Virus genome (UHGV): UHGV-0346409
DNA: 44,226 nt
Source of the DNA: a virus
Strand: one strand, 5' to 3'
Shown here: positions 1,905 through 31,597 of the stretch, piece by piece
Numbering within the stretch: position 1 is the stretch's first letter
Layout: each line of letters begins with the position of its first letter
Position numbers and translations under genes: made by a program
The notes under the pieces: model-generated
What the model was told of the DNA's origin: nothing
Databases searched by the model: none
What the model saw: only the letters and a program-made list of their open reading frames with translations

Positions 1905-2473
1905 TAGCGTACCCTCAGCGAACGTTCGCCGCGTTCCAGATGTGCGCCTGGTACCGGGTTTAATAACTCGGCTGGTGGTGTTTCTCCACGCGCCAGTATT
2001 TCGGCGGCAACCGCCTCCGCAGATTCAATCACTTCTTTAATGGCTCGCTTGTTTGGTGTAATAACCGTTTCTACATCAACAAGTGACACGCCTTCATACT
2101 CATCCGGGATCTTATCTTTGCTATCGATAATTACCCGGATAGCCCCCTGTGCATCAGTAAATGTGTTTTTTGCGGTTTTTAGTTTATCCAGGCCAGCAGC
2201 TTGCAGGCAGGCGAGCATATGCTTCCGAATTGCTTTTTCCTTGCCTTCAAAGGACGTCTTACGGGTAGCCAGGCGAGACATTTCTTCAGCGCAGGTACTG
2301 GCATTGCCCTGTAAATTGCGGCAGATGACCATCATGGCGTCCAGTTTGTCTCCCAGTTCTCCTTCCATACCTTCAAGTGTGTCGGCGATCATCTCTGGCG
2401 TCAGTTCGTCGGAGGTTTCCAGCAGGTCAATCAGGCTGGCGTATTCTTTTGCAATAGCGATAGCGGTGCTCAT
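1904..2473 (-). CDS. Gp157-like protein (siphovirus Gp157 family, recombination-module associated)
   Basis: 189-aa acidic helical protein whose N-terminus resembles Gp157-family proteins that accompany ERF/RecT in phage recombination modules (recall); coupled to the upstream ERF-like gene. Confidence 0.45.
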   Translation of the reverse strand: MSTAIAIAKEYASLIDLLETSDELTPEMIADTLEGMEGELGDKLDAMMVICRNLQGNASTCAEEMSRLATRKTSFEGKEKAIRKHMLACLQAAGLDKLKTAKNTFTDAQGAIRVIIDSKDKIPDEYEGVSLVDVETVITPNKRAIKEVIESAEAVAAEILARGETPPAELLNPVPGAHLERGERSLRVR

Positions 2474-4692
2474 GCTGTTTGCTCCTGTGCGGCGGCGAGA
2501 GCGGCGAGGCGTTCGGTTTTGATTTCATTCAAACGGCGCAGGCGCGAACCAAGATAAGTTGAATACTCCTTATCACCTTTGGATTCTGCGGCTTTGCGGT
2601 GAACTTCTACTTCCCGCGCAATAAGGCCATAGACTTTATTAACTTCATTGGGGGTTACGGCTGCAGCCAGTGTTTTGGCAACACCTGAGAGTCGTTCATC
2701 CAGTTCTTCACGCAGTCGGGTAGCATCCTCTGCTTTCTCGCTTGCCTTCTTAATACCGTATTCTGTATTCAGCTCGGCGGTGTAGGCACTATCGTTATGC
2801 ATATCCATATAAACATCTGCCGCAAATCCCAGATGAGATAGTGCTTTGACGGTGGCATCAGTAAGAGACTTTTTGGAGGCCTCTTTTTCCATTACCAGTG
2901 CCCCTTTGTTATTTTTTGATATGTAATCCGTGTGGCCATATGACGGAATAAATCCTTTCACTCCGTTCCAGACGTACCAGAGATCTATCCGGATGGTGTG
3001 TACTGACAGGCAGAACAGGGAGCCGTCAGCATCCCTGACAGGTTTTTGTCCAATAATTTTCCCTGTCTGATCCTGTATAGGTTCAAGTAATGGCACACCG
3101 CGATCCACTCGCTCCTCCTTGATTTCAACTCCCCAACCAATGCCTTCCATTCCCAGCACTTCAGTCGCACGCATCAAAATATATTGTGCGCGTATGGAGT
3201 GCAGTCCTGCACCGTAATCATTATGTGTGACATACGCAGGATCGGTCCGCTGAACGCGATTCCAGATAGCCAAATTTGCTTTGCTCTGGTCATCATTCAT
3301 TGCTGACAGATAATGCTCCATGCGAATTGATGCAGTTTTTTCCTCGGTATGGATCCGCTCAACCAGAGCGTCAACGTTCTGCACCAGGTCTTTTACCTGC
3401 TCGCTAAGTTTTTCTTGTGGAGGAGTCTCTTCTTCCAGGATAACAGTTACAGATTCCCGCTGTGATACGGCGTTATTTTCTGGTACGCCATACACATGGC
3501 GGGGCGTGACAAACTGCTCACGCAACTGCTGCAAACTACGCTCTCCAGCATTTGCTGCTTCGCTTTTTTCGCCCTGATTTGAGGGGGGTTCTGACATCAT
3601 CCCATCGATTGAGAATCGCCCGCCGCCGTGGTTGGTGACTTTTACATCACCCTTTGGTGCTGCGTCCTTTGGCTTCTCTTCAACAGCATTTGCATCACGC
3701 TGCCCGTTAGCTTGCAGCCAGTTGTCGATGTGACTGCGCAGGGATTGCGGGAAATGGTACGTGTCTTTTGCGGGGGCACTCTGAACGACACCGAATACGG
3801 ATGCCCGGTCATAGGAAAGGATCTGATCCGTTGTGCGCAAGGCCATTGACCAGCGTTTAAAATCCTCCCGATCCTGGCTGATTATTTCGTCTGCCGCTTT
3901 CAGGACGCTGGGGGTGATTTTTTCCGGGCCAACGGGTAACAGAGCGCAGGCAATTTCACGATCCAGTGTAGCGTGAGTCTGTTTGTAAGGACGTGCGGAT
4001 GCTGTTTCTGGTTTTACCTCCGGCAGCATTTCATCGCGTTTACCGGGATTCTCTACCCATTTTTTTATAAATTTGGAGATAGTCCAACTGGTCGGGTTTT
4101 GTTCCTGGGTATCGCAACTTGCCAAAATTGCATGTACCAGATTATTCAATCCAGCAATATGCATGTACTCGATGGGCTTACACGCCACCATGGCATCAAG
4201 AACGATGCGGTTAAACGCGTCAACCTCATCCTCACTGTCAGTATCACTGTTGTCGAGCATCTCCAGGTATTCACGCGTCTGCGCAAGCAATTCACTGTTG
4301 ACTTCGTTGGCGTCGTGGCTGAACAGCAGAACGGCGGCGAATCGTTCACGAGCCGGCAGTTTCATCAGGTCGTTAACCTGTGCGATATCTGCTGAACCGC
4401 TATCTACAACGGGGGTGTTAACTACCCATTTTTCGCCATCAAAACTGTGTTCTGTGGCGAACGTCTCATCAAACTCACCAACGCCTGGGCGCGGTTGGCC
4501 CGGGGCATCTTCCCAGATTTTAGGTTTGAAATAGTTGTCGCCGTGGTCAGGGTAGGCTTCCCACAATTTGCCGATGATGATGTTCTCGGCAACTTTTTTG
4601 TTAGGGGCGTCGATGGCGATGGCCAGCGCCGGGATCGCGCCGTTTTTGAGCGCGCCTTTTTTCGCTTCTAACAAGCCGTTAAAAATGGTCAT
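2470..4692 (-). CDS. Large recombination protein with ERF-like single-strand-annealing domain in its C-terminal half and an N-terminal ~430 aa of unknown function
   Basis: 740-aa ORF; region around aa 450-640 (NDYGAG..IRAQYIL.., ..KKSLTDATVKALSHLGFAADVYMD) resembles the ERF family by recall; preceded by ATGAGGAAAGACCA motif. Confidence 0.5.
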   Translation of the reverse strand: MTIFNGLLEAKKGALKNGAIPALAIAIDAPNKKVAENIIIGKLWEAYPDHGDNYFKPKIWEDAPGQPRPGVGEFDETFATEHSFDGEKWVVNTPVVDSGSADIAQVNDLMKLPARERFAAVLLFSHDANEVNSELLAQTREYLEMLDNSDTDSEDEVDAFNRIVLDAMVACKPIEYMHIAGLNNLVHAILASCDTQEQNPTSWTISKFIKKWVENPGKRDEMLPEVKPETASARPYKQTHATLDREIACALLPVGPEKITPSVLKAADEIISQDREDFKRWSMALRTTDQILSYDRASVFGVVQSAPAKDTYHFPQSLRSHIDNWLQANGQRDANAVEEKPKDAAPKGDVKVTNHGGGRFSIDGMMSEPPSNQGEKSEAANAGERSLQQLREQFVTPRHVYGVPENNAVSQRESVTVILEEETPPQEKLSEQVKDLVQNVDALVERIHTEEKTASIRMEHYLSAMNDDQSKANLAIWNRVQRTDPAYVTHNDYGAGLHSIRAQYILMRATEVLGMEGIGWGVEIKEERVDRGVPLLEPIQDQTGKIIGQKPVRDADGSLFCLSVHTIRIDLWYVWNGVKGFIPSYGHTDYISKNNKGALVMEKEASKKSLTDATVKALSHLGFAADVYMDMHNDSAYTAELNTEYGIKKASEKAEDATRLREELDERLSGVAKTLAAAVTPNEVNKVYGLIAREVEVHRKAAESKGDKEYSTYLGSRLRRLNEIKTERLAALAAAQEQTA

Positions 4693-4722
4693 TGGTCTTT
4701 CCTCATTACAGGTCAGTGGTTT

Positions 4723-5043
4723 TTAGTAGGGGAGCTCATCGGTATCTGGCGTGTATTCGATGCAAAGTAACTGCTGGATTTTGTCATCGATAGCAGCAAT
4801 ACGCTGTTGAGCGTCGGCGGCTGTATTCTGTTTTTGCTCACGCAGCTGCTCGACCTGCAAACCGATGATGTCGATTGGCTGGGGCTGGTTGACGGTAATT
4901 TCAATTTCGCGGCTTTCCAGAAGGATGTACCTGTCTGGAAAATTTTTTGACATATCAACCGTCGCAATAAACAGCTTTTCATGGCTGAAAGTTGAAGTTG
5001 CATAATGAATAAAGAGTGTTACTGGGATGGTGCGCGCTTCCAT
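4723..5043 (-). CDS. Hypothetical early protein (106 aa)
   Basis: ORF with AAGGAG 5 nt upstream of ATG. Confidence 0.5.
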   Translation of the reverse strand: MEARTIPVTLFIHYATSTFSHEKLFIATVDMSKNFPDRYILLESREIEITVNQPQPIDIIGLQVEQLREQKQNTAADAQQRIAAIDDKIQQLLCIEYTPDTDELPY

Positions 5044-6039
5044 AGCGACTCCTTGGTGATGTATACTCGGGACCGATCAGCGAATATTGATCAGCTTCCA
5101 TAGCGTCAGTGTCGTTGGTCTTTCCTCATCACAAGTTTGGTCACTTGTGATAAATCCGAATGGTTTGGTCGCCGTTCGGGGTAACTGGCCCGCCTTGTGC
5201 GGGTCTTTTGCTATCTAAAGGGTGCCGGTTACGTTTCCGGCGTCGTTATGTTTCCATCACGACCGTACGGGGCTGGTCTTTCCTGTTTTGAGCTGGTCAG
5301 GCTCATGGTCAACGCTGGTCAGGCGTGGTACTTCCTCCGGTCTTTCCCTGGTGTCACGCTGCGGGTTTGGCCTCTCCTGTTGGGGACTCAGGCACAGCGA
5401 TAAAACCTGGCTGTGTGAAAAAATGGCCCATCGTGCGGACTGGGCAAAGACTAAACACAGCAAATTGATGATGGGCGCCCGGAATCGAACCGGGTAACGG
5501 GCAGGGAGTTCCCGTTAAACACCTGTTCACCACAACCGGGAGCGCACTCCGCCATTTCAAAATTTAACGACAAAGCTCAAAGTTGAGTCGATGAAGTGCG
5601 CTCTCGTGTTGTAGCCAGGACTCTTCCCTGGTGGTCACACCGTATCGCCTTGATGGTGAATCAATCGCTCATACCTGGCTGTGGCTTGCACATTCCGGCT
5701 ACCTGCTATGGAGACAACGCGTTAAGGCTCCGCTTCCATCCAGACCGCTTCGACACATGTGCCATATGCCGGCGAAGTCTTTCCCTCTGTCATCGTGTTG
5801 GCGCCGACGCGCAAAATTTGATGCCGTCTTTCCGGCTGTCAGAACGTGTTTCTGAACAACTGCCGCTGGGTAAGCGTTGTTGATGAAAGTGACTTTACAA
5901 TTTGTATTTGTAATGGTCAACGTATTTTTAAAAAATAATTTGTAGTTAGGGGCAAAAAAATATTCACTGTGTAAAGGTGTTTTTGTGTTAGGGGGAAAGT
6001 TGCATGCCAGCAGCGGCTGGCCTGAAAATTTGAACTGAA

Positions 6040-6453
6040 CTATTTTGTCTGGTTTTTGGCTTCAAGTAGTTCTTTTAGCAGTAGATCGAAGTGCTCTCTT
6101 TTTTCTTTTAGCTCATTGATTAATTTATTTTTTTCGCTCTCAGGCAGTCCTCTGAATAGTTGCAGTAGAGCCTGTTCTTGCGGGGTTAGTTCTTGATTGT
6201 AATTACCCGGGTGTAGCGTGGATTCATCCAAATATTCCCCTTCATTCATGAAGAAAAAATGAACAGGGTATCCGGTCACTTTTGCTAGCTTGTCTAATTT
6301 ATCTTTTCTTGGAGTTACCCCATTACACCATGCCTGAACTGATTGAGCCGTAACCCCAATATGGCGAGCTAACTCAGATTGAGACCAGCCTAAGTCTTTT
6401 AGAATCCGTTGTAGTCGGCTAGCAAAAGCCATGTTTTTCGTTTTTGTGTTCAT
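6040..6453 (-). CDS. Phage repressor, XRE-family HTH, no S24 peptidase domain (CI-like position)
   Basis: N-terminal HTH (LGWSQSELARHIGVTAQSVQAWCNG); helical C-terminus; divergent from cro-like gene. Start ambiguous (ATG 6453 or 6432; ORF-track TTG 6468). Confidence 0.7.
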   Translation of the reverse strand: MNTKTKNMAFASRLQRILKDLGWSQSELARHIGVTAQSVQAWCNGVTPRKDKLDKLAKVTGYPVHFFFMNEGEYLDESTLHPGNYNQELTPQEQALLQLFRGLPESEKNKLINELKEKREHFDLLLKELLEAKNQTK

Positions 6454-6551
6454 ACCGTAAGGATACAAGGTTTAATTGTAGGGATCATTGCAAATATAAT
6501 TTGTAATTACAGTTATGATTTGTAATGATGGCGCGGACACAAGGAGTCCAT
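6454..6551. promoter_or_regulatory. Divergent immunity-region promoter/operator between repressor and cro-like gene
   Basis: AT-rich intergenic region with repeated TTGTAAT-type half-sites, including the palindrome TGTAATTACA at 6503-6512; position between divergent HTH genes. Confidence 0.45.
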
Positions 6552-6782
6552 ATGGATAAACAACTGCAAGACAAAATTCTTTCCGTAATGAGTCAATCCG
6601 AGTTAGGGCGGCGATTAGGGAAAAAACCACAAACGGTAAGCCTCTGGTTCAAAGGAAGGGTTCCCGGTGAAGAGGTTTTGCGCACATCTGAAGCTCTTGA
6701 ATGGCGCGTGACCCCCCATGATCTTAGACCGGATCTTTACCCAAACCCAGATGACAGCTTGCCTAAAACGAAAGCAGCTTAA
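6552..6782 (+). CDS. Cro-like HTH regulator (Cro/YdaS-type)
   Basis: 76-aa ORF with AAGGAG RBS, HTH-like segment (SQSELGRRLGKKPQTVSLWFKG), divergent from repressor. Confidence 0.65.
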   Translation: MDKQLQDKILSVMSQSELGRRLGKKPQTVSLWFKGRVPGEEVLRTSEALEWRVTPHDLRPDLYPNPDDSLPKTKAA

Positions 6783-7317: not shown

Positions 7318-7356
7318 GCGCCTGACCAGCGTTTAACTTATACCGAGGAAAGACCG

Positions 7357-7581
7357 ATGTTAAGACATATTGACCGCATTACCTGGCGTAACGGCTGGCA
7401 CCTGAATGGGCGCCCGGCACATGTTGCAGAGATCCAACCTATTTTTGATGGGCGTATGGCTGCCGCGCTTTCGGTGTGGGAGCAGTATGAATCCAGGAAG
7501 GTCGAGTTGCGCGACAAAGGGCTGAGCAATGCGGACTATGAAGCCGGTTGTCGTCAGATAGCCGAAGCTCTGGAGATCTGA
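7357..7581 (+). CDS. Hypothetical protein (74 aa)
   Basis: ATG preceded by CCGAGGAAAGACC motif. Confidence 0.5.
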   Translation: MLRHIDRITWRNGWHLNGRPAHVAEIQPIFDGRMAAALSVWEQYESRKVELRDKGLSNADYEAGCRQIAEALEI

Positions 7582-7583
7582 GT

Positions 7584-8648
7584 ATGAGTCGTTTGCTGAT
7601 TAACGAAAACCCCCTTCAGGTCCTGCCCACGTTGGCATGCACTATAGGGTTGAATGAAGCCATCGTTCTACAGCAAATCCACTACTGGCTGAATTCATCT
7701 CAAAATTTCTTCGAAAATCGCCACTGGGTGTACAACAGTGTGACCGATTGGCAAGAACAATTCCCGTTCTGGAGCGAGTCGACAATAAAACGCGTGCTGG
7801 CCAATCTGGAAAAATTGAATGTGGTATTTACTGGGAACTTTAACAGTGATGCCTGGGATAAAACCAAGTGGTATTCAATCAATTATGCCCAGTTATGTAA
7901 GATTGAAGAGACAACATTCCCTGTGGCCAATCGATTAGGTCAAGTTGACCCAATCGAAGAGGTCAATGTGACCCAAGCATCAGGTCAAGTTGACCCATGC
8001 GCTAAGGTCAAAATGACCCAATCTCTTACAGAGAATACAACAGAGAGTACTACAGAGATAAAAGATCCCCCTTACCCCCAAAAGGGGGAGGGCGAGGAAA
8101 TCATTCTCGCTGACGCTCAAAAAGCTCTGAACTACTACAACGAGAAAGTCGGTACACGCTGCCGCGATGTTAAACCGTTTGTCATGCTGCTGACTGCCAC
8201 CACCACCCGCGCTGGTTACAGCGTGGCTGAGATTCAGTTAGTAATTCGTTGGGTTATTGCGACATGGCGCCGTCGTAGCGGAAGCGTGCCGAAACCTGCG
8301 AACATTTGCCGCGTAAACCGGTTTGACGGATATCTGGCTGACGCTGAGGCGTGGGCCACTGCTGAGGCTGCCGTTGACCCTGCTGAAGTTGTGAAGAGCT
8401 ACAACGAGATTCTGGGCGACCTGCTACCTATAGCTGAAATTGATACTGACCGCCGTCGGGCAATCCTGCGCCTGCTGGCACATATGCGCACGCAAACTCT
8501 TGGCGCATTTATCGGCTACTTCGAAAAATTCCGCGATAACGCCCCAGACTTCTATTTCGGCGGCGAATATCGCACCGGCTGGCGGGCAGGGTTTGATTAC
8601 CTGATGAAGCCAGAAACACTGCGTAAAACCAGGGAAGGGGCATTATGA
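7584..8648 (+). CDS. Replication initiator (lambda O-like) containing the origin iterons
   Basis: 354-aa ORF from ATG 7584 (GGAG upstream); four iterons inside the coding sequence as in lambda O/ori; coupled (ATGA) to the helicase gene. Confidence 0.65.
   Translation: MSRLLINENPLQVLPTLACTIGLNEAIVLQQIHYWLNSSQNFFENRHWVYNSVTDWQEQFPFWSESTIKRVLANLEKLNVVFTGNFNSDAWDKTKWYSINYAQLCKIEETTFPVANRLGQVDPIEEVNVTQASGQVDPCAKVKMTQSLTENTTESTTEIKDPPYPQKGEGEEIILADAQKALNYYNEKVGTRCRDVKPFVMLLTATTTRAGYSVAEIQLVIRWVIATWRRRSGSVPKPANICRVNRFDGYLADAEAWATAEAAVDPAEVVKSYNEILGDLLPIAEIDTDRRRAILRLLAHMRTQTLGAFIGYFEKFRDNAPDFYFGGEYRTGWRAGFDYLMKPETLRKTREGAL
7938..8020 (+). repeat. Origin iterons: four copies of GGTCAA-NN-TGACCCA at 7938, 7961, 7983, 8006, followed by an AT-rich stretch
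   Basis: Read directly; 22-23 bp spacing (about two helical turns). Confidence 0.75.
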
Positions 8649-10036
8649 ATCCAGAAGAACTGGAAGCGATCGTTCTCGCTGGTCTGATTAACGGTGGCGC
8701 GACGCCTGACGCGTTTGATGTGATTGCCACTACTCCGGAGGAAGCCTTCAGCATCGTGTTTCACCGTCGCGCTTTCAGCGAAATCAAAAAGCAGGCACTG
8801 GCGAACGGCATGATCGACATGTTGTTTATCAGCGAAGCGCTGGGCGGTTCCAGCCTTGCGGATCTGTCTCAAATATCCCGGATCCCGGCAACGGTACCGA
8901 ATCTGAAAGGCTATGCCGGGAAAATGGTGCGGGCATGGCGGAGCCGCAAAATGGCGGCATTGTTGCAATCTGGCGCGGATGGTATCCGTAACGCTGTAAA
9001 CCAGAGTCAGCGTGATGAGGTTATTGAATCTCATGTTGCTCAGGTGCTGGATATGAGCGCCGCTACCGGCACAGTCCAGCCGGTACACATCAAAGAGCTG
9101 TTACCGCTCTACATTGACACCGTTGATAAACGGATGTCTGGTGACGCGCAGGAAATGATGCTGAAAACCGGAGTCGAGGATCTGGATGTCGCCCTGGGCG
9201 GTATCAACATGACCGATCTTGTTGTGGTTGCCGGTCGTCCAGGCATGGGGAAAACGGAATTTACCCTGAAGATTATCGATGGCGTTACCGCAGATGGCGG
9301 CGGCGCACTGTTTTTCAGCATGGAAATGGGCGCTCAGCAGATTGTTGAACGTACCGTTGCCGGGGCTGGGAATATGTCAACGTCGCGTCTGCGTAATCCA
9401 AAAGAAATGGACGATGAGGATTTGACCAGATTAACCGCCGCGCTTGCAATCATGCAGGATCGCGATATCTGGATTGTTGATGCCACTGATTTGACGATTG
9501 AGCAGATCCGCGCCATTGCAGAGACTCATAAACGCCGTTATCCGCACCTGAAGTTGATTGGTGTTGATTACATGGGCCTGATCAAAAAACCGAAGGCCGA
9601 GCGCCACGATCTCGCTGTCGGGCATATCTCCCGCAACATGAAGACTATGGCCATGCGTCTGCATACCCCTGTTTTTGCTCTTAGCCAGCTTTCCCGCCAG
9701 GTGGATTCTCGACCTGCTGGCCAGCGTCGCCCGGTGATGTCGGACCTGCGCGATTCCGGCAGTGTTGAGCAGGACGCTGACAGCATTTTGTTTTTGTACC
9801 GCGATGAAGTTTACACACCTGATTCACCTGCAAAGGGTATCGCCGAGGTGATTATCGGTAAAAACCGTTCTGGCGGGGCAGGTGAAATTATTTATCAGGA
9901 ATTCCGGAATGGGCATTTCCTGCCAATTGATCAACACGTAGCACGCGAAAAAATACGCATCCAGAAGGAGGCAGAGCAACCGAGAAAACGTGAAAAACGG
10001 TATTCAAACAAAAACTTTAATACGGACCCATTTTAA
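8645..10036 (+). CDS. Replicative DNA helicase, DnaB family
   Basis: 463-aa ORF with Walker A (GRPGMGKT), and DnaB-like motifs (recall); directly downstream of the initiator. Confidence 0.85.
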   Translation: MNPEELEAIVLAGLINGGATPDAFDVIATTPEEAFSIVFHRRAFSEIKKQALANGMIDMLFISEALGGSSLADLSQISRIPATVPNLKGYAGKMVRAWRSRKMAALLQSGADGIRNAVNQSQRDEVIESHVAQVLDMSAATGTVQPVHIKELLPLYIDTVDKRMSGDAQEMMLKTGVEDLDVALGGINMTDLVVVAGRPGMGKTEFTLKIIDGVTADGGGALFFSMEMGAQQIVERTVAGAGNMSTSRLRNPKEMDDEDLTRLTAALAIMQDRDIWIVDATDLTIEQIRAIAETHKRRYPHLKLIGVDYMGLIKKPKAERHDLAVGHISRNMKTMAMRLHTPVFALSQLSRQVDSRPAGQRRPVMSDLRDSGSVEQDADSILFLYRDEVYTPDSPAKGIAEVIIGKNRSGGAGEIIYQEFRNGHFLPIDQHVAREKIRIQKEAEQPRKREKRYSNKNFNTDPF

Positions 10037-10074
10037 CCACGCATGACCAGCGTGAAATAACCGAGGAAAGACCA

Positions 10075-10476
10075 ATGACCCAATTAATTAACCACACGAG
10101 TGCACACTATAGTGACGACGGTAAAAACTACCTGGATTCAATTCTGTGGCACATGAACGCAGCCGCGCGAGCACGTACCCGCTCGACATATTGCCCGCCA
10201 CCTAAAAACACTGACGTTGTGGTAATTGCAAAACCTGAGCACGTAGCAGTTATTCGCCCGGCAGAAATAACCTCAGGGACCGCCAAAACACATACCGGCG
10301 TTGTTATTAAAAATACTGGTGAGCGCACAGTAAAACTCCGCGAAACAGCGACTGCGTGGTCTGCGGGTGTAAGGGAGAACTACGATAAAAAAACAGGTTA
10401 CCGCTTAGGCGCATCAGGCAGCACCCGGTTGTTACTCGACACCGTGAAGCCCATCAGGAAGAAGGGCAAAAAATAA
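10075..10476 (+). CDS. Hypothetical protein (133 aa)
   Basis: ATG preceded by CCGAGGAAAGACCA motif. Confidence 0.5.
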   Translation: MTQLINHTSAHYSDDGKNYLDSILWHMNAAARARTRSTYCPPPKNTDVVVIAKPEHVAVIRPAEITSGTAKTHTGVVIKNTGERTVKLRETATAWSAGVRENYDKKTGYRLGASGSTRLLLDTVKPIRKKGKK

Positions 10477-11339: not shown

Positions 11340-11431
11340 ATTGACTTAGAAAAAGCCCGGGGCTATAGTTTCCGCGCAGCCGCAAAATCGGTTGCCGGGA
11401 TTTGCACCCCGGATATCTAAAAGGCGACAAC

Positions 11432-11451
11432 GACGCGCCAGCGTCTTTTTT
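11432..11451 (+). terminator. Rho-independent terminator candidate
   Basis: GACGC-GCCA-GCGTC hairpin followed by TTTTTT. Confidence 0.5.
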
Positions 11452-11611
11452 ATTGTCGTGCGCACAGCCACATCCGCGATTTATGGTGGGGCGTGTAGGG
11501 GAGTCGAAAGGCTCGCCGGGTCCTTTTAGCCGGTAGTGCAAACCCTGCATGTCTCACCACCCAAAGATTTGCACCTGAGGGGGGTGATTATCCGACTAAA
11601 AGGAAATCGCT

Positions 11612-23799: not shown

Positions 23800-24366
23800 A
23801 TGGCAAGTCAGGCTGAGGTCGCAGCACATTTACTGCTATCAGATCGTCGTCTGCGCGATCTCGCAAAACTTCCGGGAGCACCAGTCCCACAAGGACGTGG
23901 TGATTGGGAGCTAGACGCCTGGCGCCATTTCTATATTCATTATCTCCGGAGTAATAGACGCGACACAGTTGGTACTGACGAACCGGAAGTGGGGGACAAT
24001 TCTCCCGAAAAAAATCGCGAGCAGTGGCTGAAAAATGAGGAACGACAGGAGCGAATCCTGATGGCTCGCGTGAAACGCCGCATTCTTGCTAAACGCTACG
24101 CGCCAATTGAATTAATCAGCGTCGCTGTATCTCGCGTCGCAGTTGAATTACGTACCCGTGTCGAATCGTGGCCACCACGGTTGAAAAAGGTGTGGCCTGA
24201 AATGCCGCAGGAGGCGAGCAGTGTTTTACGAGAGGAGCTGGCGATAGCCCTGAATGAACTGGCAGACATACGAGTCGACTTCAGCGATTACGATGTCAGC
24301 GATATCGAACGCGATCTCGACAGGGTTGAATCCCTTGCGCGTGACGATACCGATGACGGGGGTTGA
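23800..24366 (+). CDS. Terminase small subunit (lambda Nu1-like)
   Basis: 188-aa ORF immediately upstream of and overlapping the large terminase gene; GAGG RBS; assignment by position and general resemblance. Confidence 0.55.
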   Translation: MASQAEVAAHLLLSDRRLRDLAKLPGAPVPQGRGDWELDAWRHFYIHYLRSNRRDTVGTDEPEVGDNSPEKNREQWLKNEERQERILMARVKRRILAKRYAPIELISVAVSRVAVELRTRVESWPPRLKKVWPEMPQEASSVLREELAIALNELADIRVDFSDYDVSDIERDLDRVESLARDDTDDGG

Positions 24367-26218
24367 GTGGGCTGATAAATATTTTTATCTCCCTGAGGGC
24401 TCCAGCCACATCGCTGGCCACTGGACGACTCAGCCGGTCCAGGTAGTGATGCTCAATATGATGACTAACGACGCGATAAAAATCGTGTCTGTTCGCAAAT
24501 CAGCTCGTCTCGGTTATACAAAAATACTCGTCGCGGCGCTGCTCTATTTCGCTGAGCACAAAAAACGTAGTGCCGTGGTCTATCAGCCTATCGATGACGA
24601 ATCGGATGGATTTGTTGCCGACGAGGTTGACCCCGCTATCGCCGAAATGCCGGTGATTCAGAAAATTTTCCCCGACTGGGATAAAAGCAACGAGCGTAAC
24701 AATCTCCAGCGTAAAGAAATGAGCGGCGCGATTATTGATTTTCGCGGCGCGAGTGCACCAGGAAATTTCCGGCGACTAACGAAACAGGTTGTCGAGGGTG
24801 ACGAAGTTGACGGCTGGCCGCTGGAAGTTGCCAAAAAAGGCAAAGGCGAGGGCTCGCCCATCGAACTGGCGCTCGTTCGAATTAAAGGGGCAGCGTACCC
24901 GAAGGCGATTTTCGGCTCGACGCCAACCGTCACCGGAAAAAGTCATATTGAAATGCTGGAGGATGCCGCTGACCTGACGTTTCGTTTTTACCTGAAATGT
25001 CCGCATTGTGGCGAGGAGCAGGTCCTGGTATTTGGTTTCGACGGCATCGAATATGGCCTCAAATGGGATAATAGCCTGCAGACAAATGAGGCGAAATCGT
25101 CGTCCGCGTATTACCAGTGCTGCCACTGTCCTGAGCATTTTTACTATCGCGATCTCGAAAAAATGGAGCTCGCGGGGCGCTGGATAGCAGAGGACTGCAC
25201 CTGGACGCGGGACGGTATTCGTTTTTTTGATCACGACGGTGGTGTCGTTCGCGCGCCGAAACACGCGGCGATCGTGATAAACGCCATGTATTCGCTGAAT
25301 CTCGACGGCTGGGGCGAGATTGTCAGCGAGTGGCTGAAAGCGAAGGGCGATCCGCTCAAAGAAAAGACGTTTCATAACACGACGCTCGGCGAACTCTGGA
25401 GTGACGTAGCCAGCGAGCAGCTGGAGCACGATATTCTGGTTAATCGCCGGGAAAAATACGCCAGCCAGGTTCCTGACGGTGTTGTTTATCTGACCGGCGG
25501 CATCGACTCTCAGACGTCCGGTCGCTACGAGTGTTACGTGTGGGGCTGGGGAGTGGAGGAGGAGTGCTGGCTGATTGATAAAACAATCGTCCTCGGTCGC
25601 TACGACGAGGAGGACACGCTGCAGCGCGTCGACGGAGTGATTCGCAAACAATACCGGCGCAGCGACGGGACCACAATCGGCGTCAGTCGCTGGGCGTGGG
25701 ATACCGGTGGTATAGATGCGCAGGTCGTTTATAACCGCTCGCTGAAACTCGGTCCGCTGTGGGTCATTCCAATTAAAGGTGCGAGTTCATACGGTCAGCC
25801 AGTCGTAAATATGCCGCGTACACGTAACGCGAATAAAGTCTATTTGTCGTTAATCGGTACTGATACGGCAAAAGATTTGCTCGCAATGCGCCTGCCGCTG
25901 GAACCCGATTCTAAATCGGCGACACCAAGTGCGATTCATTTTCCCAACGACGACGAAATATTCGGCACGACAGAGGCAAAACAGCTCGTCTCTGAAGTTC
26001 TGATCCCGAAACTGATTAACGGTCGCGTCGTTTATCGCTGGGACAACCAGGGCCGGCGAAATGAGGCGCTCGACTGCTGGGTATACGCGCTGGCAGCGCT
26101 ACGTATCAGTAAAATTCGTTTCCAGCTCAATCTCGAGACGCTCGCTGAGCAACGGAAAAAATCACAAAACAAACTGTCTCTCGAGGAGATGGCCAGAATG
26201 CTCGGAGGGAGCTCATGA
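24254..26218 (+). CDS. A: Terminase large subunit (lambda gpA-like)
   Basis: Long collinear matches to lambda gpA by recall (VEWAD.YYLP, KSAR.GY.K, CPHCGEEQ, TTLGE.W, YLT.GIDSQ, WGWG..EE.WLID, IPIKGAS.YG.PV, NEALDC.VYALAALRIS). Start may be 24254, 24293 or 24353. Confidence 0.9.
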   Translation: MNWQTYESTSAITMSAISNAISTGLNPLRVTIPMTGVEWADKYFYLPEGSSHIAGHWTTQPVQVVMLNMMTNDAIKIVSVRKSARLGYTKILVAALLYFAEHKKRSAVVYQPIDDESDGFVADEVDPAIAEMPVIQKIFPDWDKSNERNNLQRKEMSGAIIDFRGASAPGNFRRLTKQVVEGDEVDGWPLEVAKKGKGEGSPIELALVRIKGAAYPKAIFGSTPTVTGKSHIEMLEDAADLTFRFYLKCPHCGEEQVLVFGFDGIEYGLKWDNSLQTNEAKSSSAYYQCCHCPEHFYYRDLEKMELAGRWIAEDCTWTRDGIRFFDHDGGVVRAPKHAAIVINAMYSLNLDGWGEIVSEWLKAKGDPLKEKTFHNTTLGELWSDVASEQLEHDILVNRREKYASQVPDGVVYLTGGIDSQTSGRYECYVWGWGVEEECWLIDKTIVLGRYDEEDTLQRVDGVIRKQYRRSDGTTIGVSRWAWDTGGIDAQVVYNRSLKLGPLWVIPIKGASSYGQPVVNMPRTRNANKVYLSLIGTDTAKDLLAMRLPLEPDSKSATPSAIHFPNDDEIFGTTEAKQLVSEVLIPKLINGRVVYRWDNQGRRNEALDCWVYALAALRISKIRFQLNLETLAEQRKKSQNKLSLEEMARMLGGSS

Positions 26219-26448
26219 TGTCGCGCGAGGTTTTAACAGAACGGCTGCTGGAAGCTGAAATTGCCCTGCACAAATTATTAACGGGTAGATCGACTGTATC
26301 GCTGTCTCACGGCGATTCAGCGGGAAATAACCGGAGCTATCAATACTCACAGGCGAGTATTGAACAGCTCCGAACGTACATTATCGAGCTGAAATCACAG
26401 CTCGGTCTGAGTACGGGACGCCGCCGTCCCGTGGGAGTTCGATTATGA
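26215..26448 (+). CDS. W: Head-tail joining protein (lambda gpW-like)
   Basis: 77-aa ORF resembling lambda W by recall (..AL..L.TG..V.....D....Y....I..L.....); coupled to terminase and portal genes. Confidence 0.75.
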   Translation: MMSREVLTERLLEAEIALHKLLTGRSTVSLSHGDSAGNNRSYQYSQASIEQLRTYIIELKSQLGLSTGRRRPVGVRL

Positions 26449-28016
26449 CTGCTCAGCAGTTGCTCGGGCCTGACGGTAAAACGCCACTACGCCGTTACGC
26501 GGGGTATAACGGCGGCGGTCCCGGCTTCGGTGGCCAGCTGATTGACTGGAATGCACCACAGCAAAGCGCCGATGCGGCACTGCTGCCTAATTTTTATCGC
26601 GGTAACGCGCGAGCAGACGATCTCGTTCGTAATAACGGCGTCGCGTCGAACGCCGTGCAGCTGCATCAGGATCATATCGTCGGCAATCTGTTTAAGTTGA
26701 GTTATCGCCCTAACTGGCGTTACATCGGGATATCTCGCGAGGACGCCAGGGCGCTGGCGCGTGACGTTGAGGTCGCGTGGACTGAATACGCCGAGGACCC
26801 TCACTGCACGATTGATATCGAGCGGAAACGGACGTTCACAATGATGATTCGCGAAGGCGTGGCCACTCACGCGTTCAACGGTGAAACCTGCGTACAACCG
26901 GTGTGGGAGAGCTGCGCCGGCAGCGTTTTTCGGACGCGATTCAAAATGGTCTCACCGAAACGAATTCGAAATCCTGGCTACGCAGCTGACACTCAATTTC
27001 GCCGCGCCGGTGTTGATATCGATAAAAACGGGGCCGCGGTTGGGTACTGGATAGCCGAGGATACCTATCCCCTCGGCGGAGTTGGTAAATGCCGGCGCAT
27101 ACCAGCAAAACTCAGCAGCGGCAGACACGCATTCATTCACATATTCGAGCCGCTCGAGGACGGACAAACCCGCGGAGATAACATTTTTTACAGCGTAATG
27201 GAGCGGCTGAAAATGCTCGATACGCTGCAGCAAACACAGCTGCAGAGCGCCATCGTGAAGGCGATGTACGCCGCCACAATCGAATCAGAGCTCGACAGCC
27301 AGCAGGCGTTTGAATATATCGCCGGCGCGGGTACTGATATCGACTCGAACCCGCTGAGTTCGTTTATTCAGAGTTACGTGACGTACTACAACGGCGCAAA
27401 TATCAAGCTCGGTGGTGTGAAAGTTCCCCACCTGCATCCCGGCGACAAACTCAGTTTACAGACCGCTCAGAATGCTGATGCTGGTTTCAGTTCGCTGGAA
27501 AAATCACTCCTGCGTTACGTTGCCGCTGGCGTCGGCGCGTCATATGAGGAACTGAGTCGGGACTACAGCCAGGTCAGTTACTCCAGCGCGCGGGCCAGCG
27601 CAAACGTGAGCTGGCGTTTTTTCATGGGCCGTCGACGTTTTATCGCCGCACGACAGGCGTCACTGATGTTCTGCTGCTGGTTTGAGGAAGCTCTGGCGCG
27701 CGGAGTTATCACCCTGCCACGCTCAGCGGTCCGGTCGTTTTATGAAGCGCGGAACTCCTGGACGAACGCGCTCTGGATCGGCGCTGGTCGCATGGCGATT
27801 GATGGGCTGAAAGAGGTTCAGGAGAGCGCCATGCGCATCACGACTGGCCTCAGCACGTATCAGAACGAACTCGCGCTGCAGGGGCAGGACTACGAGGAGG
27901 TCATGGAACAACAGGAATACGAAATTCAGCGCCGGCGCGAAATGGGGCTGAGCGAACCATCCTGGTCAGTATCTCACCCCTCAAATACCAACGATAACGG
28001 CTGGGGAGGTAACTGA
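26445..28016 (+). CDS. B: Portal protein (lambda gpB-like)
   Basis: 523-aa ORF in the canonical position between W and the protease gene. Confidence 0.8.
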   Translation: MTAQQLLGPDGKTPLRRYAGYNGGGPGFGGQLIDWNAPQQSADAALLPNFYRGNARADDLVRNNGVASNAVQLHQDHIVGNLFKLSYRPNWRYIGISREDARALARDVEVAWTEYAEDPHCTIDIERKRTFTMMIREGVATHAFNGETCVQPVWESCAGSVFRTRFKMVSPKRIRNPGYAADTQFRRAGVDIDKNGAAVGYWIAEDTYPLGGVGKCRRIPAKLSSGRHAFIHIFEPLEDGQTRGDNIFYSVMERLKMLDTLQQTQLQSAIVKAMYAATIESELDSQQAFEYIAGAGTDIDSNPLSSFIQSYVTYYNGANIKLGGVKVPHLHPGDKLSLQTAQNADAGFSSLEKSLLRYVAAGVGASYEELSRDYSQVSYSSARASANVSWRFFMGRRRFIAARQASLMFCCWFEEALARGVITLPRSAVRSFYEARNSWTNALWIGAGRMAIDGLKEVQESAMRITTGLSTYQNELALQGQDYEEVMEQQEYEIQRRREMGLSEPSWSVSHPSNTNDNGWGGN

Positions 28017-29326
28017 TGCCGTGGAACAATTTTCCGCACCTCGCCGCTAGGGCGTTCAATCAACCGCTTTTGCTGGAGCCCGCCTACGCGCGGGTATTTT
28101 TTTCTGCGCTGAGCGACCGGTTCGGTACCGGGCGACTGATTGATACAGCGTCAGGAGAGGTAATGAACAGCGACGAAATGAACGCGCTCGCGATGGGGTG
28201 GGACAGCAGCGAGCGAACACGCCAGAAATCGTATCGCGTGGAGCGTGGTATAGCCGTTCTGCCGGTTACCGGGACGCTGGTTCATAAATTGGGTTATATC
28301 AATCCGGTCAGCGGGATGAGTGGTTACGACGGAATCGCAAAACGCCTGCAGCAGGCGATTTCTGATCCCGATGTTAAGGGGATCCTGCTGGATATTGATT
28401 CCCCTGGCGGTGAGGTCGCCGGCGCGTTTGATACCGCTGATTTAATCGCCCGGGCGCGAGAGCAAAAACCGGTGTGGGCGCTGGCCAGCGATACGGCCTG
28501 CAGCGCCGCATATTTGCTGGCGTCAGCGTGTTCGCGCCGGCTGATAACGCAGACCGGCACGGTTGGTTCAATCGGTGTCCTGATGGCTCACCGCTGCGTC
28601 GAAAAGGCGCTGGAGATTGCCGGCGTTGACGTGACGCTGATTTACGCCGGCGCGCACAAAGTCGACGGGAACCCGTATTCCCAGCTGCCCGACGACGTTC
28701 GCGACGAATTCCAGCTGAGTATTAACAGCACACGCGAGCAGTTCGCGCAAAAAGTCTCGGATTATACCGGGCTGAAAAAATCCAGGGTGCTGGCCACAGA
28801 GGCCGCAGTATTTATCGGCGCGGACGCGATTAAATCTGGTCTCGCTGATCAACTCGTTAATTACGCGGACGCTATCGCAGTGATGGCCGACGCACTGAAA
28901 CCAAAAACGGAGCGATTTATGCCAGGTACAACAGAAACCACGGCGGAGACCACGACCACAGAACAAACCGCGGCTACGACTACGGTCGCGCCGGTTGAGT
29001 CCAACGCGGAGCAGATTCGCGCGGACGCCGCATCGAGCGAACTGGCACGCGTGATGGCCATCATCAACTGTCCCGAAGCTGTTGGGCGCGAGGCGCAGGC
29101 AAAAGCGCTCGCTGCCGTCCCCGGGATGACGGTCGGGCAGGCGCAGGCTGTCCTCGCGGCAGCACCGCAAACAGCGCAGGCGCGGACAGAAACGGCGCTC
29201 GATACACTCATGAGCACTGAATCACCGGAAACTATTCAGGATGCCGGCAGCACCACGGCAACAGGAACAACCGCAAACGTCTCGATGCTGGTCGCGGCAG
29301 GGCGTTCAATTTTAGGGGATGAATAA
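28016..29326 (+). CDS. C: Prohead protease / scaffold (lambda gpC-like, S49 peptidase family)
   Basis: S49/ClpP-like segment (GILLDIDSPGGEVAG..AYLLASAC..GSIGV) and Ala/Thr-rich C-terminus. Confidence 0.8.
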   Translation: MPWNNFPHLAARAFNQPLLLEPAYARVFFSALSDRFGTGRLIDTASGEVMNSDEMNALAMGWDSSERTRQKSYRVERGIAVLPVTGTLVHKLGYINPVSGMSGYDGIAKRLQQAISDPDVKGILLDIDSPGGEVAGAFDTADLIARAREQKPVWALASDTACSAAYLLASACSRRLITQTGTVGSIGVLMAHRCVEKALEIAGVDVTLIYAGAHKVDGNPYSQLPDDVRDEFQLSINSTREQFAQKVSDYTGLKKSRVLATEAAVFIGADAIKSGLADQLVNYADAIAVMADALKPKTERFMPGTTETTAETTTTEQTAATTTVAPVESNAEQIRADAASSELARVMAIINCPEAVGREAQAKALAAVPGMTVGQAQAVLAAAPQTAQARTETALDTLMSTESPETIQDAGSTTATGTTANVSMLVAAGRSILGDE

Positions 29327-29655
29327 TGACCACAGAAACGTATAGCCCGGATGATTTTATTCTGGGACCCGATCTTGTTGTGACGACCGTCGGTCATTTT
29401 CAGGGCGGGATCAACGTACCCCGGCTGACACCGATTATGCTCGACGCTACTGCCGGGACGTTTAAAGTCTGGGACGGCTCAATTGGTAAGGCGGTTGGTC
29501 TCACAGCCACAGCAGTTAATACAGGCTCCAGTTCTGCAGACTGCTCGTACTACAAATCAGGATCGTTTCGTTATACGGCGATTAACTGGGGTACGGTTAC
29601 TGACGTCGCTAAACGCAAATCAGCGTTTGCTGGTACGCCAGTCAGCGTTGGCTGA
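29326..29655 (+). CDS. D: Head decoration protein (lambda gpD-like)
   Basis: 109-aa ORF matching lambda D by recall (P.ML.....K...WDG......YKSG.FRY......AFAGT..S). Confidence 0.8.
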   Translation: MTTETYSPDDFILGPDLVVTTVGHFQGGINVPRLTPIMLDATAGTFKVWDGSIGKAVGLTATAVNTGSSSADCSYYKSGSFRYTAINWGTVTDVAKRKSAFAGTPVSVG

Positions 29656-29678
29656 TAGCAAAAAAAAAACTCAAAACA

Positions 29679-29701
29679 AGCCGCCTCCGGGCGGTTTTTT
29701 T
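29679..29701 (+). terminator. Hairpin plus T-run between the decoration and major capsid genes (partial terminator or RNA-stability element)
   Basis: A-run, AGCCGCC-TCCG-GGCGGTT hairpin, then TTTTT. Confidence 0.45.
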
Positions 29702-29716
29702 ATACAGGATATATAA

Positions 29717-30751
29717 ATGAGCGATTCGTTTACTACGTCAGAACTGATTACCGCAACGCAGCAGGTATTTAAGTTCAATCCGTTGTTTTTAAGATTGTTT
29801 TTCCGTGAGACCTACACGTTTACGAGCGAAGAGGTTTTTCTGGATAAAATCCCGGGCAAAGTCAATATGGCGGTATATTGCGCGCCGATGATCACCGGCA
29901 AAGTTGACCGCACTCGCGGCTATTCAACGAACCATTTCAAACCGGGTTACACGAAGCCGAAACACACGATCAATCCGAATATGAGCATTAAGCGCGCCGC
30001 CGGTGAGCAAATTGGTCAGCCGGAAACGCCGGTCGAACGTCGTGCAAAAATCATCATGCAGAACCTGCTCGACGAGGAACTCAGCATCAGTCAGCTCGAA
30101 GAGTTCCAGGCAGTGCAGGCGGTTCTGTACGGTAAATACACAGTCTCCGGCAGCAATATCGAGACCTATGAGATCGATATGAGCCGCAGCGCGACGAATA
30201 ACGTCACTCAGTCCGGTTCGACAGCCTGGTCTACTCAGGACGCGGAAACGTATGACCCGAGCGACGATATCGAATCCTATGCAGACCTCGCCTCCGGTGC
30301 TGTTAACGTGATCATCATGGACGGTAAAGCCTGGAAGCAGTTGAAGCGCTTTAAAAAATTCTGGACGGCACTGGATACGCGCCGTGGCTCAAACAGCCAG
30401 CTCGAAGTCGCGCTGAAAAACCTGGGCGATGTCGTTAGCTTTAAGGGCTATTACGGCGACACGGCGCTGTTCGTTTACAAGGGGCAATATATTGACCCTG
30501 TAACAGGCATTGAAACGCGTTATATGCCGGATAACACGATGATCCTGGGCAACACAAAAAATCGCGGACTCCGCACGTATGGCGCGATTCAGGACGAAGA
30601 CGCGCTGAAAGAGGGGATCTGCGAGGCCACGCGCTATCCAAAAGTCTGGACGACGACCGGTGATCCGGCAGTGACGCAGACAATGACTCAATCCGCGCCA
30701 GCAATGGTGCTCACGGACGCTGATGCATTCGTCGTCGTAAAAATCGCGTAA
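29717..30751 (+). CDS. E: Major capsid protein (lambda gpE-like)
   Basis: 344-aa ORF with long collinear similarity to lambda E by recall (FKF.PLFLRLFFRE, PGYVKPKH, RRGSNS.LE, LPDNTM.LGNT..RGLRTYG.IQD, RYPK.W.TTGDPA). Confidence 0.9.
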   Translation: MSDSFTTSELITATQQVFKFNPLFLRLFFRETYTFTSEEVFLDKIPGKVNMAVYCAPMITGKVDRTRGYSTNHFKPGYTKPKHTINPNMSIKRAAGEQIGQPETPVERRAKIIMQNLLDEELSISQLEEFQAVQAVLYGKYTVSGSNIETYEIDMSRSATNNVTQSGSTAWSTQDAETYDPSDDIESYADLASGAVNVIIMDGKAWKQLKRFKKFWTALDTRRGSNSQLEVALKNLGDVVSFKGYYGDTALFVYKGQYIDPVTGIETRYMPDNTMILGNTKNRGLRTYGAIQDEDALKEGICEATRYPKVWTTTGDPAVTQTMTQSAPAMVLTDADAFVVVKIA

Positions 30752-30770
30752 GAGCCGAAAGGCTCTTTTT
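30752..30770 (+). terminator. Rho-independent terminator just after the major capsid gene
   Basis: GAGCC-GAAA-GGCTC hairpin followed by TTTTT. Confidence 0.55.
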
Positions 30771-30781
30771 AAGGAATCAAC

Positions 30782-31566: not shown

Positions 31567-31587
31567 GTGGGACCGCGGTCCCACTTA
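31564..31587. repeat. Perfect 24-bp palindrome TAAGTGGGACCGCGGTCCCACTTA overlapping the stop codon of the FII-like gene
   Basis: Read directly; 12-bp arms with no spacer; 10 nt upstream of the RBS of the next gene. Confidence 0.8.
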
Positions 31588-31597
31588 AGGGGGAACC

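Follow-up and report, generated by a model that had tools for sequence, protein, structure and literature searches.

What does a prophage carry between its repressor gene and its first early-left gene when the interval holds no recognizable gene? The question arises for positions 5044 to 6039 of UHGV virus genome UHGV-0346409, a stretch of 44,226 nucleotides (nt) that is called the window here and to which all coordinates refer unless another genome is named. The window represents an Escherichia coli lambdoid prophage, and the order of the flanking genes places the kilobase after the repressor gene and ahead of the first early-left gene; it is read most naturally along the minus strand. A first-pass annotation, made from the letters alone, had noted an orphaned translation-initiation motif and several palindromes and had proposed gene decay, an unannotated structured RNA or an extended regulatory region of the leftward promoter (pL) with nut-type sites. 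The kilobase is best explained as the first ~840 nt of a repressor-controlled pL transcript, predicted to be noncoding, within which lies an element of ~240 nt (5530 to 5772, minus strand) that belongs to a so far unannotated family of predicted structured RNAs.

Structure and covariation of the core RNA

The element consists of a core (P1 to P5; Table 1) and a long helix, P6. In the core, the hairpin P1 (pentaloop GGCAC) and the helix P2 are followed by the invariant strand GGUAGCCGGAAUGUGCAAG, P3, P4, a pseudoknot and P5. The loop of P4 reads UCACCA in the window and forms the pseudoknot with a downstream GGUG; P5 reads CCAGG-GAAGAGU-CCUGG. Across the family, P1 is an 8-bp hairpin, the pseudoknot has 4 bp (P4 loop UCACC with GGUG) and P5 is a 5-bp stem with the loop GGAAGAG. 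The overall fold has six helices and the pseudoknot arranged around an invariant strand of 19 to 21 nt.

A hand-drawn structure was scored on a MAFFT alignment of 67 nonredundant sequences (30 pairs, 1853 cells). P1 to P5 and the pseudoknot were paired in 97.5% of the cells, compared with 30 to 49% when the 3' partners were slid by 1 to 3 columns. Changes on both sides occurred in 12 of the 30 pairs (156 cells), and the observed covariation score was reached in none of 500 shuffles. The exchanges were between C-G (42 sequences) and U-A (25) in P2, A-U (30) and G-C (19) in P1, A-U, U-G and C-G in P4, and C-G (57) and A-U (10) in the pseudoknot. G-U pairs were frequent; pair 46-108 was U-G in 67 of 67 sequences, and pair 23-33 was of this kind in 50. 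Since these pairs would be A-C on the opposite strand, the folded molecule is the minus strand.

This strand specificity also bears on the idea that the locus acts as DNA, as an origin formed by a single-strand hairpin, a site of recombination or packaging, or a remnant of a phage attachment site (attP). The palindromes would fold on either strand, and a T-arm with an acceptor-like end, described below, resembles the tRNA 3' halves of attP sites. However, the G-U pairs are strand specific, in every context the element keeps one orientation to tRNA genes, promoters and terminators, and the real attachment site lies at tRNA-Ser(cga) (94 to 183), where the prophage is integrated. A DNA-level role is thus the least probable of the explanations considered here, and an extremely unlikely one.

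Covariance model R1 had a single match in the window (137.3 bits, E = 1.8e-41, model positions 1 to 153), which is partly by construction because the window copy is in the seed alignment. The independent genome, P1 and Stx2c copies were matched over their full length in 23 of 23 cases, at 103 to 158 bits. The 19-mer GGUAGCCGGAAUGUGCAAG occurs once in the window (5685 to 5703, minus strand) and is invariant in 11 relatives found by BLAST (alignment A1). The aligned relatives also have invariant blocks such as GGTAGCCGGAATGTGCAAGCC and hairpin stems with compensatory changes. With the window, 10 loci and the Stx2c copy as queries, no Rfam 15 family was found for the core, either at gathering-score level or at E <= 10. 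These comparisons show that the element represents a previously unannotated family of predicted structured RNAs of Enterobacterales temperate phages. A structured RNA, one of the first-pass proposals, has in this way become the main result; it resides neither in the tRNA-like piece nor in the small palindromes singled out at the time, and only P6 had been caught.

The kilobase was confirmed to lack a credible open reading frame (ORF). The longest ORFs on either strand have 68 to 95 amino acids (aa), none was matched by PHROGs or Pfam, and the PGAP annotation left the stretch empty in 481 E. coli genomes. The flanking genes were recognized in the same scans, namely the 106-aa gene (phrog_2479) and the 142-aa helix-turn-helix (HTH) repressor. 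Among 68 core homologues, variation was without 3-base periodicity and length differences were not multiples of 3. A 73-aa minus-strand ORF starts at 5920, within the promoter. A conserved ORF, a family match and codon periodicity, the marks of a protein-coding gene, were all absent from 5044 to 6039. The Rfam search and the comparison with relatives, both proposed earlier as checks, returned a covarying RNA fold, no conserved ORF and no Rfam family for the core.

Distribution and unit architecture in relatives

Megablast against phages returned no relatives. With a sensitive BLAST search of the kilobase against phage genomes, two syntenic phages, BUCT708 and BUCT709, were found at 72% identity. 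A block of 90 to 170 nt (window ~5600 to 5771) was also found in quite different phages: Uetakevirus SPN1S, Tyrion, PAT1 and BUCT554, Lastavirus SopranoGao, Klebsiella prophages, and the P1-like SJ46 and D6. It lies in the terminase-portal interval, at the genome end by the lysis genes or in the trnI-ban interval and is without annotation almost everywhere. BUCT708 and BUCT709 (OM816834 and OM816835), which are labeled "Stenotrophomonas phage," are syntenic with the E. coli prophage from the integrase through DnaB, and their host label looks doubtful.

A search with the 19-mer yielded at least 120 viral contigs, representing at least 112 distinct versions, and 24 species genomes, all from Enterobacterales except two metagenome bins. 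By blastn, the element was present in 665 of 5426 complete E. coli genomes (~12%), sequence type ST131 included, at 488 chromosomal and 196 plasmid places (the plasmids are presumed from their size to be P1-like), and none of these copies was annotated. It also occurs in much-studied phages. In P1 (AF234172, 71009 to 71294; locus L167), the core scored 132 bits in the 286-nt trnI-ban gap, which is blank in the detailed P1 record, and P7 carries the element in the same gap. The P1 copy has no P6, and its core lies ~50 nt upstream of the ban Shine-Dalgarno sequence and runs into the ban ribosome-binding site (RBS). In Stx2c-converting phages the element stands next to the repressor; the order in the Stx2c phage analyzed is terminator of the repressor-like gene, promoter TTGACA-16-CATAAT, RNA, and a U-run hairpin ~130 nt ahead of the first early-left ORF.

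The element was not described in the literature on RprA-like phage RNAs, Pas small RNAs (sRNAs), the P1 transcriptome and noncoding RNA surveys, for which coverage of subscription journals was incomplete. The P1vir transcriptome paper discusses trnI and ban and not the gap between them, and a 50-genome noncoding RNA survey has no phage motif. The prophage Pas sRNAs are located near late genes (PMC13192938).

In SPN1S, a TTGACA promoter is followed by the core, P6, tRNA-Arg, and the hairpin GCUGUGUAGCUAUUGGCGG with a U-run; a degenerate RprA-like tail stands after the tRNA-Arg. Among the 112 versions, a tRNA-Arg(UCU) gene on the same strand begins inside GUUGUGG, the end of P6, in 22, and a tRNA-like second domain begins there in 21. 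An RprA-like tail lies downstream on the same strand in 22 versions, trnI lies just upstream in 13 P1-type versions, and no neighboring tRNA was found on the opposite strand. A stringent terminator was present within 750 nt of the 19-mer in 72 of 102 versions (median distance, 324 nt). The promoters, abutting tRNAs and terminators of the relatives indicate that the family is normally a closed transcription unit, an RNA of ~400 nt plus a tRNA or tRNA mimic. The shared arrangement shows a predicted unit of sigma-70 promoter, core with P6, tRNA-Arg(UCU) or tRNA-like domain, and intrinsic terminator. For the window, the best explanation is that such a unit has been placed directly behind pL and ends at an RprA-like terminator, with its tRNA-like part decayed to a T-arm remnant.

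In some relatives (L168, 3240 to 3420; L019, L010, L006 and others), the second domain mimics a tRNA, with the pattern GUGGUGA-AU-GCGC[AGGCUGAU]GCGC ... GCCGG[AGAUCAGCA]CCGGC-CACCAC. The "D" loop of this domain is the Watson-Crick complement of its "T" loop (GCUGAU/AUCAGC), and where a tRNA has its anticodon arm there is a highly variable insert.

P6, the tRNA-like remnant and the RprA-like tail

The inverted repeat underlying P6 had been reported as 9 bp at 5541 to 5549 and 5598 to 5606. The repeat is real but forms a 12-nt pair, 5537 to 5548 with 5595 to 5606 (92% complementary), and the second arm had been placed ~3 bases off. P6 ends in the invariant GUUGUGG (5530 to 5536). Its strands diverge between lineages while complementarity is kept (GCAACGGGTAGCTCACT/AGTGAGCTACTCGTTG versus CACAATCAAAGAGCG/CGCTCTTTTTGATTGTG). 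Mean duplex energies were -22.9 kcal/mol for cognate strands, -17.2 kcal/mol for noncognate strands and -14.7 kcal/mol for shuffled strands. P6 of the window is followed on the same strand by the T-arm remnant and the terminator, as expected of a family member.

The tRNA acceptor stem has its first four bases within the invariant end of P6. This would suit a riboswitch-like sensor, in which the core would have a small molecule or a tRNA as its ligand and, through competition between the outer pairs of P6 and the acceptor stem, would set termination at 5419 to 5446 or access of RNase P to the abutting tRNA. The core is aptamer-like, with its invariant single strand, pseudoknot and multihelix junction, and the position of the P1 core just ahead of the ban Shine-Dalgarno sequence fits as well. 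However, the sequence from the core to the terminator is not conserved across lineages, so that no common expression platform is visible. The downstream genes share no function that would hint at a ligand, and riboswitches are not known to control tRNAs. A sensor of this kind appears improbable.

The remnant begins with GUGGUGAA, with which the tRNA-like second domain of relatives starts, and includes a perfect T-arm, CCCGG-UUCGAUU-CCGGG (5477 to 5493). The segment that had been likened to a T-arm and acceptor end is present (CCCGGTTCGATTCCGGG-CGCCCAT-CA, minus strand, 5493 to 5468), but its reading as a tRNA found no support. With default settings ARAGORN called no tRNA at the remnant, and an implausible call appeared only at the 80% threshold; Rfam tRNA-Sec scored 19.3 bits there against a cutoff of 47, and RF00005 gave no match. 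A 20-mer of the remnant occurs in only 12 copies in viral contigs, all identical. The remnant is confined to the phage lineage of the window, and the BUCT708 lineage has an unrelated hairpin in its place. A tRNA gene or pseudogene at 5465 to 5555 was rejected on the negative ARAGORN and Rfam results and the lineage restriction of the 20-mer.

The terminator at 5419 to 5446 (AUUUUUU) is the only terminator-like site on the minus strand in the region. It lies ~465 nt past pL and is likely the 3' end of a predicted ~465-nt pL RNA. The ~50 nt up to the terminator are nearly identical to the 3' end of RprA (model positions ~62 to 108). The Rfam RprA model (RF00034) scored 37.4 bits against a cutoff of 70 (E = 0.014 in a 1.25-kb search); its positions 1 to 60 aligned poorly, with nonstandard pairs, to the tRNA-like remnant. 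A full RprA homologue was rejected, since only the 3' tail matches and the 5' stem-loops, including the seed hairpin, do not. The RprA seed lies in a stem-loop near nt 31 (PMC5861431).

The RprA-like tail (GCUGUGU..UAG.CU.UUGGC, hairpin, UUUU, ACAC) was observed as a common 3' end of phage RNA/tRNA units (SPN1S, locus L003, 2720 to 2800; window, 5416 to 5464). It is possible that the RprA terminator module and the phage units share an ancestry. Pairing of the tail with the RBS motif GGAAAGAC was considered and judged a coincidence, with only 6 to 7 contiguous pairs.

The pL promoter and the fate of its transcript

A sigma-70-type site (Table 1) is the only promoter-like site in 4900 to 6600. 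The repeats that overlap it recur in the cI/cro intergenic region (TTACAATTTGTATTTGTAATG and relatives), and we read the site at 5892 to 5920 as the putative pL with its operators. Transcription would start near 5885. The leader between this point and the core has small hairpins, such as GCCG-GAAAGA-CGGC (5825 to 5838). In relatives this stem is GCCCG/CGGGC, a change that is not compensatory because it adds a pair. An N-type antiterminator was named neither by PGAP nor by the Pfam/PHROGs scans of the prophage, in which no dedicated N search was made. The earlier proposal of an extended pL/nut-type architecture holds for pL, its operators and an untranslated leader with an internal terminator; no nut/N system could be recognized.

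A pseudoknotted RNA that is fused to tRNA-Arg(UCU) or comes first off pL would likely have a specific biochemical role. With slightly better than even confidence, we favor a discrete ~465-nt pL RNA that has an Hfq-type tail, is released by RNase P in relatives and acts in trans. Upon derepression, by induction or infection, pL would first make this discrete, stable RNA. In relatives it may be trimmed by RNase P at GUUGU/GG and so parted from the abutting tRNA. Its 3' tail would be of the Hfq-binding sRNA type, and it would act in trans on a putative host or phage partner. The early-left genes would be reached only by polymerases that read through the terminator. From sequence features, we infer the expression of the pL RNA, its ends, Hfq binding and action in trans.

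Several points weigh against this explanation. The transcription start and the ends and stability of the RNA are predictions, and its partner or target is hypothetical. Single-sequence folding of 5418 to 5885 was unremarkable (z = -1.6 sense, -1.4 antisense), which leaves comparison between relatives as the basis for the fold. Since the exact 19-mer served to assemble the viral and genome sets, its invariance there is circular; independent evidence for it is limited to the 11 BLAST-found sequences of A1. The P1 element, which lacks P6 and leads straight into the ban RBS, behaves as a 5' untranslated region (UTR). Finally, no separate early-left promoter was found after the terminator in the window or in a Stx2c phage, so the early-left genes must depend on read-through, which fits a role in cis at least equally.

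Such a cis role could be that of a processive antiterminator resembling HK022 put or the Bacillus EAR element, whose nascent RNA would bind its own transcribing polymerase, let it pass the RprA-like and later terminators and replace N/nut. The RNA is the first off pL, and a terminator separates it from the early-left genes, in both the window and the Stx2c phage. No N-like gene was found among the PGAP products or the PHROGs/Pfam matches of the first genes, and genes for proteins follow on the same strand in P1 (ban), Tyrion and SPN1S. The window has a single copy, which counts against antitermination; a single copy could nevertheless suffice, because no terminator-like site occurs in the right operon before the isrK terminator at 11432. 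Against it are also the absence of any R1 match in the HK022 immunity region and the closed RNA/tRNA units with a strong terminator that make up most of the family. The SopranoGao unit points at the genome end, with no ORF larger than 56 aa beyond it. Put-type action needs the RNA to be tethered to the polymerase, and in the 22 versions with an abutting tRNA, RNase P would cut this tether. Antitermination by the element is considered unlikely, though not negligibly so.

More generally, the core may be a new class of protein-independent RNA machine, its nascent RNA binding RNA polymerase or sensing a ligand or tRNA and thereby setting whether transcription stops or reads on at pL; this too we regard as rather doubtful. 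If true, the choice at pL would be between a ~465-nt Hfq-type RNA ending at the RprA-like terminator and the early-left genes. The element would then match HK022 put in function, though unrelated to it and much larger, and the same module would gate a tRNA-Arg(UCU) unit or ban in other phages.

The downstream leader and traces of gene decay

Between the terminator and the first early-left gene lies a leader with two conserved blocks, A and B (Table 1). Block A contains CCAGG-GAAAGA-CCGG, then ACCACGCCUGACCAGCGU and CCUGACCAGCUC, and then AACAGGAAAGACC. Its motifs are degenerate intercistronic junction cassettes (repeats I7, I15 and I19) without a start codon. At true gene junctions (7319 to 7359 and 10036 to 10077), the cassette reads CCACGC(C/A)TGACCAGCGT, ~10 nt, and GAGGAAAGACC(A/G)ATG, and its RBS half also occurs at 4693 to 4706 (junction region to 4730) and 1512 to 1525. 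The motif GGAAAGAC was found nine times in the window, against 1.24 expected, and always in the sense of transcription. Real junctions in both early operons share this cassette. It is possibly a mosaic-module recombination linker or a common translation-initiation region.

The orphaned initiation motif noted at 5115 to 5128 is real and lies one base further on (GAUGAGGAAAGACCA-ACG, 5116 to 5129, minus strand). The 14-mer ATGAGGAAAGACCA occurs exactly three times in the window (1512, 4693 and 5116), against 0.22 expected. The copies at 1512 and 4693 precede real ATG starts; the copy at 5116 is followed by ACG and, 12 codons on, by TGA. The true Shine-Dalgarno sequence is AAGGAG (5053 to 5058), ahead of the ATG at 5043. 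The BUCT708 lineage has two cassettes with ATG, which open ORFs of 37 and 47 aa, and a 42-aa ORF that starts at an ATG where the window has ATA. None of these three ORFs is conserved among lineages.

These observations raise the possibility that the kilobase is made of decayed early genes or mosaic debris whose repeats are relics without present function. At least two cassettes in 5044 to 5415 lack a start codon where the same cassette at true junctions has one, BUCT708-like relatives retain the ATG, and the tRNA-like piece is degenerate. However, relatives do not conserve the small ORFs, blocks A and B are ~90% identical between lineages compared with ~45% (estimated by eye) for the adjacent 106/107-aa protein, and the leader hairpins covary. 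The core, in addition, shows strong structural constraint across more than 100 versions, which come from unrelated phages, and its covariation refutes decay for 5530 to 5772. As an account of the kilobase, decay is very unlikely. The earlier idea of gene decay stands for 5044 to 5415 only, and that of a dead gene start is fair for 5116 to 5129 and no more.

Two palindromes of the leader are also better defined now. The inverted repeat given as 8 bp at 5129 to 5150 is in fact 9 bp, 5128 to 5136 with 5143 to 5151 (100% complementary); in relatives the loop GACCAA is kept over a wholly different, fully compensated stem. The hairpin with a T-run, formerly at 5189 to 5209, was verified with its stem at 5187 to 5205. 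It covaries, from CCCGC/GCGGG in the window to CCCAC/GUGGG in relatives L098 and L121. In the window its U-run TTTTGCTATC is on the plus strand only (5187 to 5212), and its counterparts in L098 and L121 resemble a bidirectional terminator. A promoter scan found no convincing plus-strand promoter upstream of 5187 to 5212, and an antisense sRNA ending at this plus-strand terminator was rejected for that reason. Also rejected was an N-like peptide encoded by the arginine-rich 42-aa ORF of BUCT708, which overlaps the hairpin 5187 to 5205; in the window, ATA stands in place of the ATG and follows an in-frame TAG, and L098 does not have the ORF. For 5044 to 5415, the best description is that of an untranslated leader under constraint, with decayed junction cassettes as its base, rather than that of genes.

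Features of the region and neighboring genes

Table 1. Features in and around positions 5044 to 6039, listed in the direction of the minus strand, with flanking genes at the end
Feature	Positions	Strand	Description
Repeat family D2	5895-5915, 6488-6508, 6507-6527		
Repeat D13	5931-5948 / 6492-6509		
Putative pL promoter and operator-like repeats	5892-5948	minus	-35 TTGACC 5915-5920, 17-nt spacer, -10 TAAAGT 5892-5897
5' leader with small hairpins	5773-5885	minus	81-82% identity in BUCT708-like lineage
Core of structured RNA family (P1-P5)	5613-5772	minus	Covariance model R1
P6, long helix with variable insert	5530-5612	minus	5' strand 5595-5612, 3' strand 5532-5548
Degenerate tRNA-like remnant	5465-5529	minus	GUGGUGAA, hairpin, T-arm, CGCCCAUCA
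RprA-3'-like tail and intrinsic terminator	5416-5464	minus	UUGCUGUGUUUAGUCUUUGCCC; stem ~5426-5446, U-run 5419-5424
Leader block A	5285-5415	minus	89-91% identity in BUCT708 lineage
Leader block B	5155-5245	minus	GC hairpin 5187-5205 with conserved flanks
5' UTR of first early-left gene	5044-5154	minus	Hairpin 5128-5151, orphan RBS cassette, Shine-Dalgarno sequence
HTH repressor, 142 aa	6040-6468	minus	Right of the kilobase
Genes left of 5044-6039		minus	Integrase, DUF4224 protein, small hypothetical, Gp157-family, 740-aa, 106-aa
Genes beyond the repressor		plus	cro, YdaT-like, 74-aa ORF, 366-aa ORF (iteron-like repeats), DnaB-type helicase

Some observations were made on the neighboring genes. 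The 740-aa early-left protein (2470 to 4692, minus strand) has no Pfam match. For the 106-aa product of the first early-left gene, phrog_2479, of unknown function, is the sole match. The repressor was matched in Pfam by HTH families only and by no peptidase family. Three or more direct repeats of 22 to 23 nt (TGACCCAA..GGTCAA; 7922 to 8011, plus strand) lie inside the 366-aa ORF, beside the DnaB-type helicase gene, and look like origin iterons. In strain RM9387 (L001, 9805 to 12221), the IS66-family element ISEc23 separates the replication genes from the helicase gene, a place where the window has no ISEc23.

Further along, isrK (76 bits) and the C4 antisense RNA (74 bits) are encoded in tandem at 11341 to 11564 on the plus strand, with a promoter of their own (TTGACT, 17 nt, TATAGT) and the isrK terminator. 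Such a tandem suggests that this lambdoid prophage has an antirepressor or anti-Q control module of the P1/Gifsy type.

Comparison with known systems

An ordinary pL leader was found to contain a widespread, strongly constrained and so far unannotated RNA, which P1 and P7 carry in the trnI-ban gap and Stx2c phages carry beside the repressor. The finding bears on how lambdoid phages without a recognized N pass early terminators and on the role of non-tRNA RNAs in phage tRNA clusters. As candidate roles, the RNA could control early transcription where no N is recognized, serve tRNA supply or processing, or act against a host factor or defense. Model R1 can be used to annotate the family. The RNA belongs to none of RprA, tRNA, put, nut/N, GOLLD, ROOL, C4, isrK and the Rfam families, since in each comparison a defining feature was lacking. 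Y RNA/YrlA, signal recognition particle RNA, RNase P RNA, tmRNA, 5S rRNA, group I and II introns and retron RNA, considered for GGUCCG and GGAAAGUCC-like motifs, were rejected, with no Rfam match at E <= 10. A CsrA sponge was rejected because GGA motifs are not above chance (own estimate, ~13 expected on one strand).

Like lambda nutL/boxB, the leader past pL has small GC hairpins with purine-rich loops (GAAAGA, ACAAG), and that at 5187 to 5205 covaries. Unlike the lambda N/nut system, it has no conserved N-like arginine-rich ORF, its boxA-like sequence is not conserved, and the hairpin 5187 to 5205 has no matching copy in the right operon. With HK022 put and the Bacillus EAR element, which are antiterminator RNAs independent of protein, the RNA shares a structured nascent RNA just past pL, before a terminator, and the lack of a recognized N-type gene. 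It differs from HK022 put in several respects. R1 gave no match at E <= 1 in HK022 24000 to 32000, in a comparison that included no reverse test with a put model. HK022 put has copies behind both pL and pR, whereas the window RNA is single in 44 kb, with none behind pR, and most of its relatives are closed RNA/tRNA units. Put is also about one-third the size of the window RNA.

GOLLD and ROOL are likewise complex, conserved noncoding RNAs of phages and prophages, without known function and often beside tRNA genes. However, the window RNA has no Rfam match, is much smaller (core plus P6, ~240 nt) and belongs to a family from Enterobacterales, in contrast to the hosts of GOLLD and ROOL, which are Firmicutes and other groups; its family is, moreover, physically fused to the 5' end of a tRNA. 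C4 and isrK, both present in the window at 11376 to 11564, are also phage regulatory RNAs processed from longer transcripts, but they are unrelated in sequence and structure, and their Rfam models did not rise above noise in 5044 to 6039.

Phage T4 produces "species 1 and 2," stable non-tRNA RNAs that are cotranscribed with phage tRNAs and freed by tRNA-processing enzymes and whose function is unknown. T4 is a lytic phage of another type, and the window RNA is likened to these species by description, not by sequence.

The likeness to RprA (RF00034) extends over the ~50 nt before the U-run (UUGCUGUGUUUAGUCUUUGCCC, hairpin, UUUUUU) and comprises a single-stranded stretch and an Hfq-type terminator. 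The 5' two-thirds of RprA are unmatched; the tail in the window ends a predicted ~465-nt phage RNA and recurs behind phage tRNA units. This shared tail suggests that phage RNA units and a core-genome sRNA are linked in evolution.

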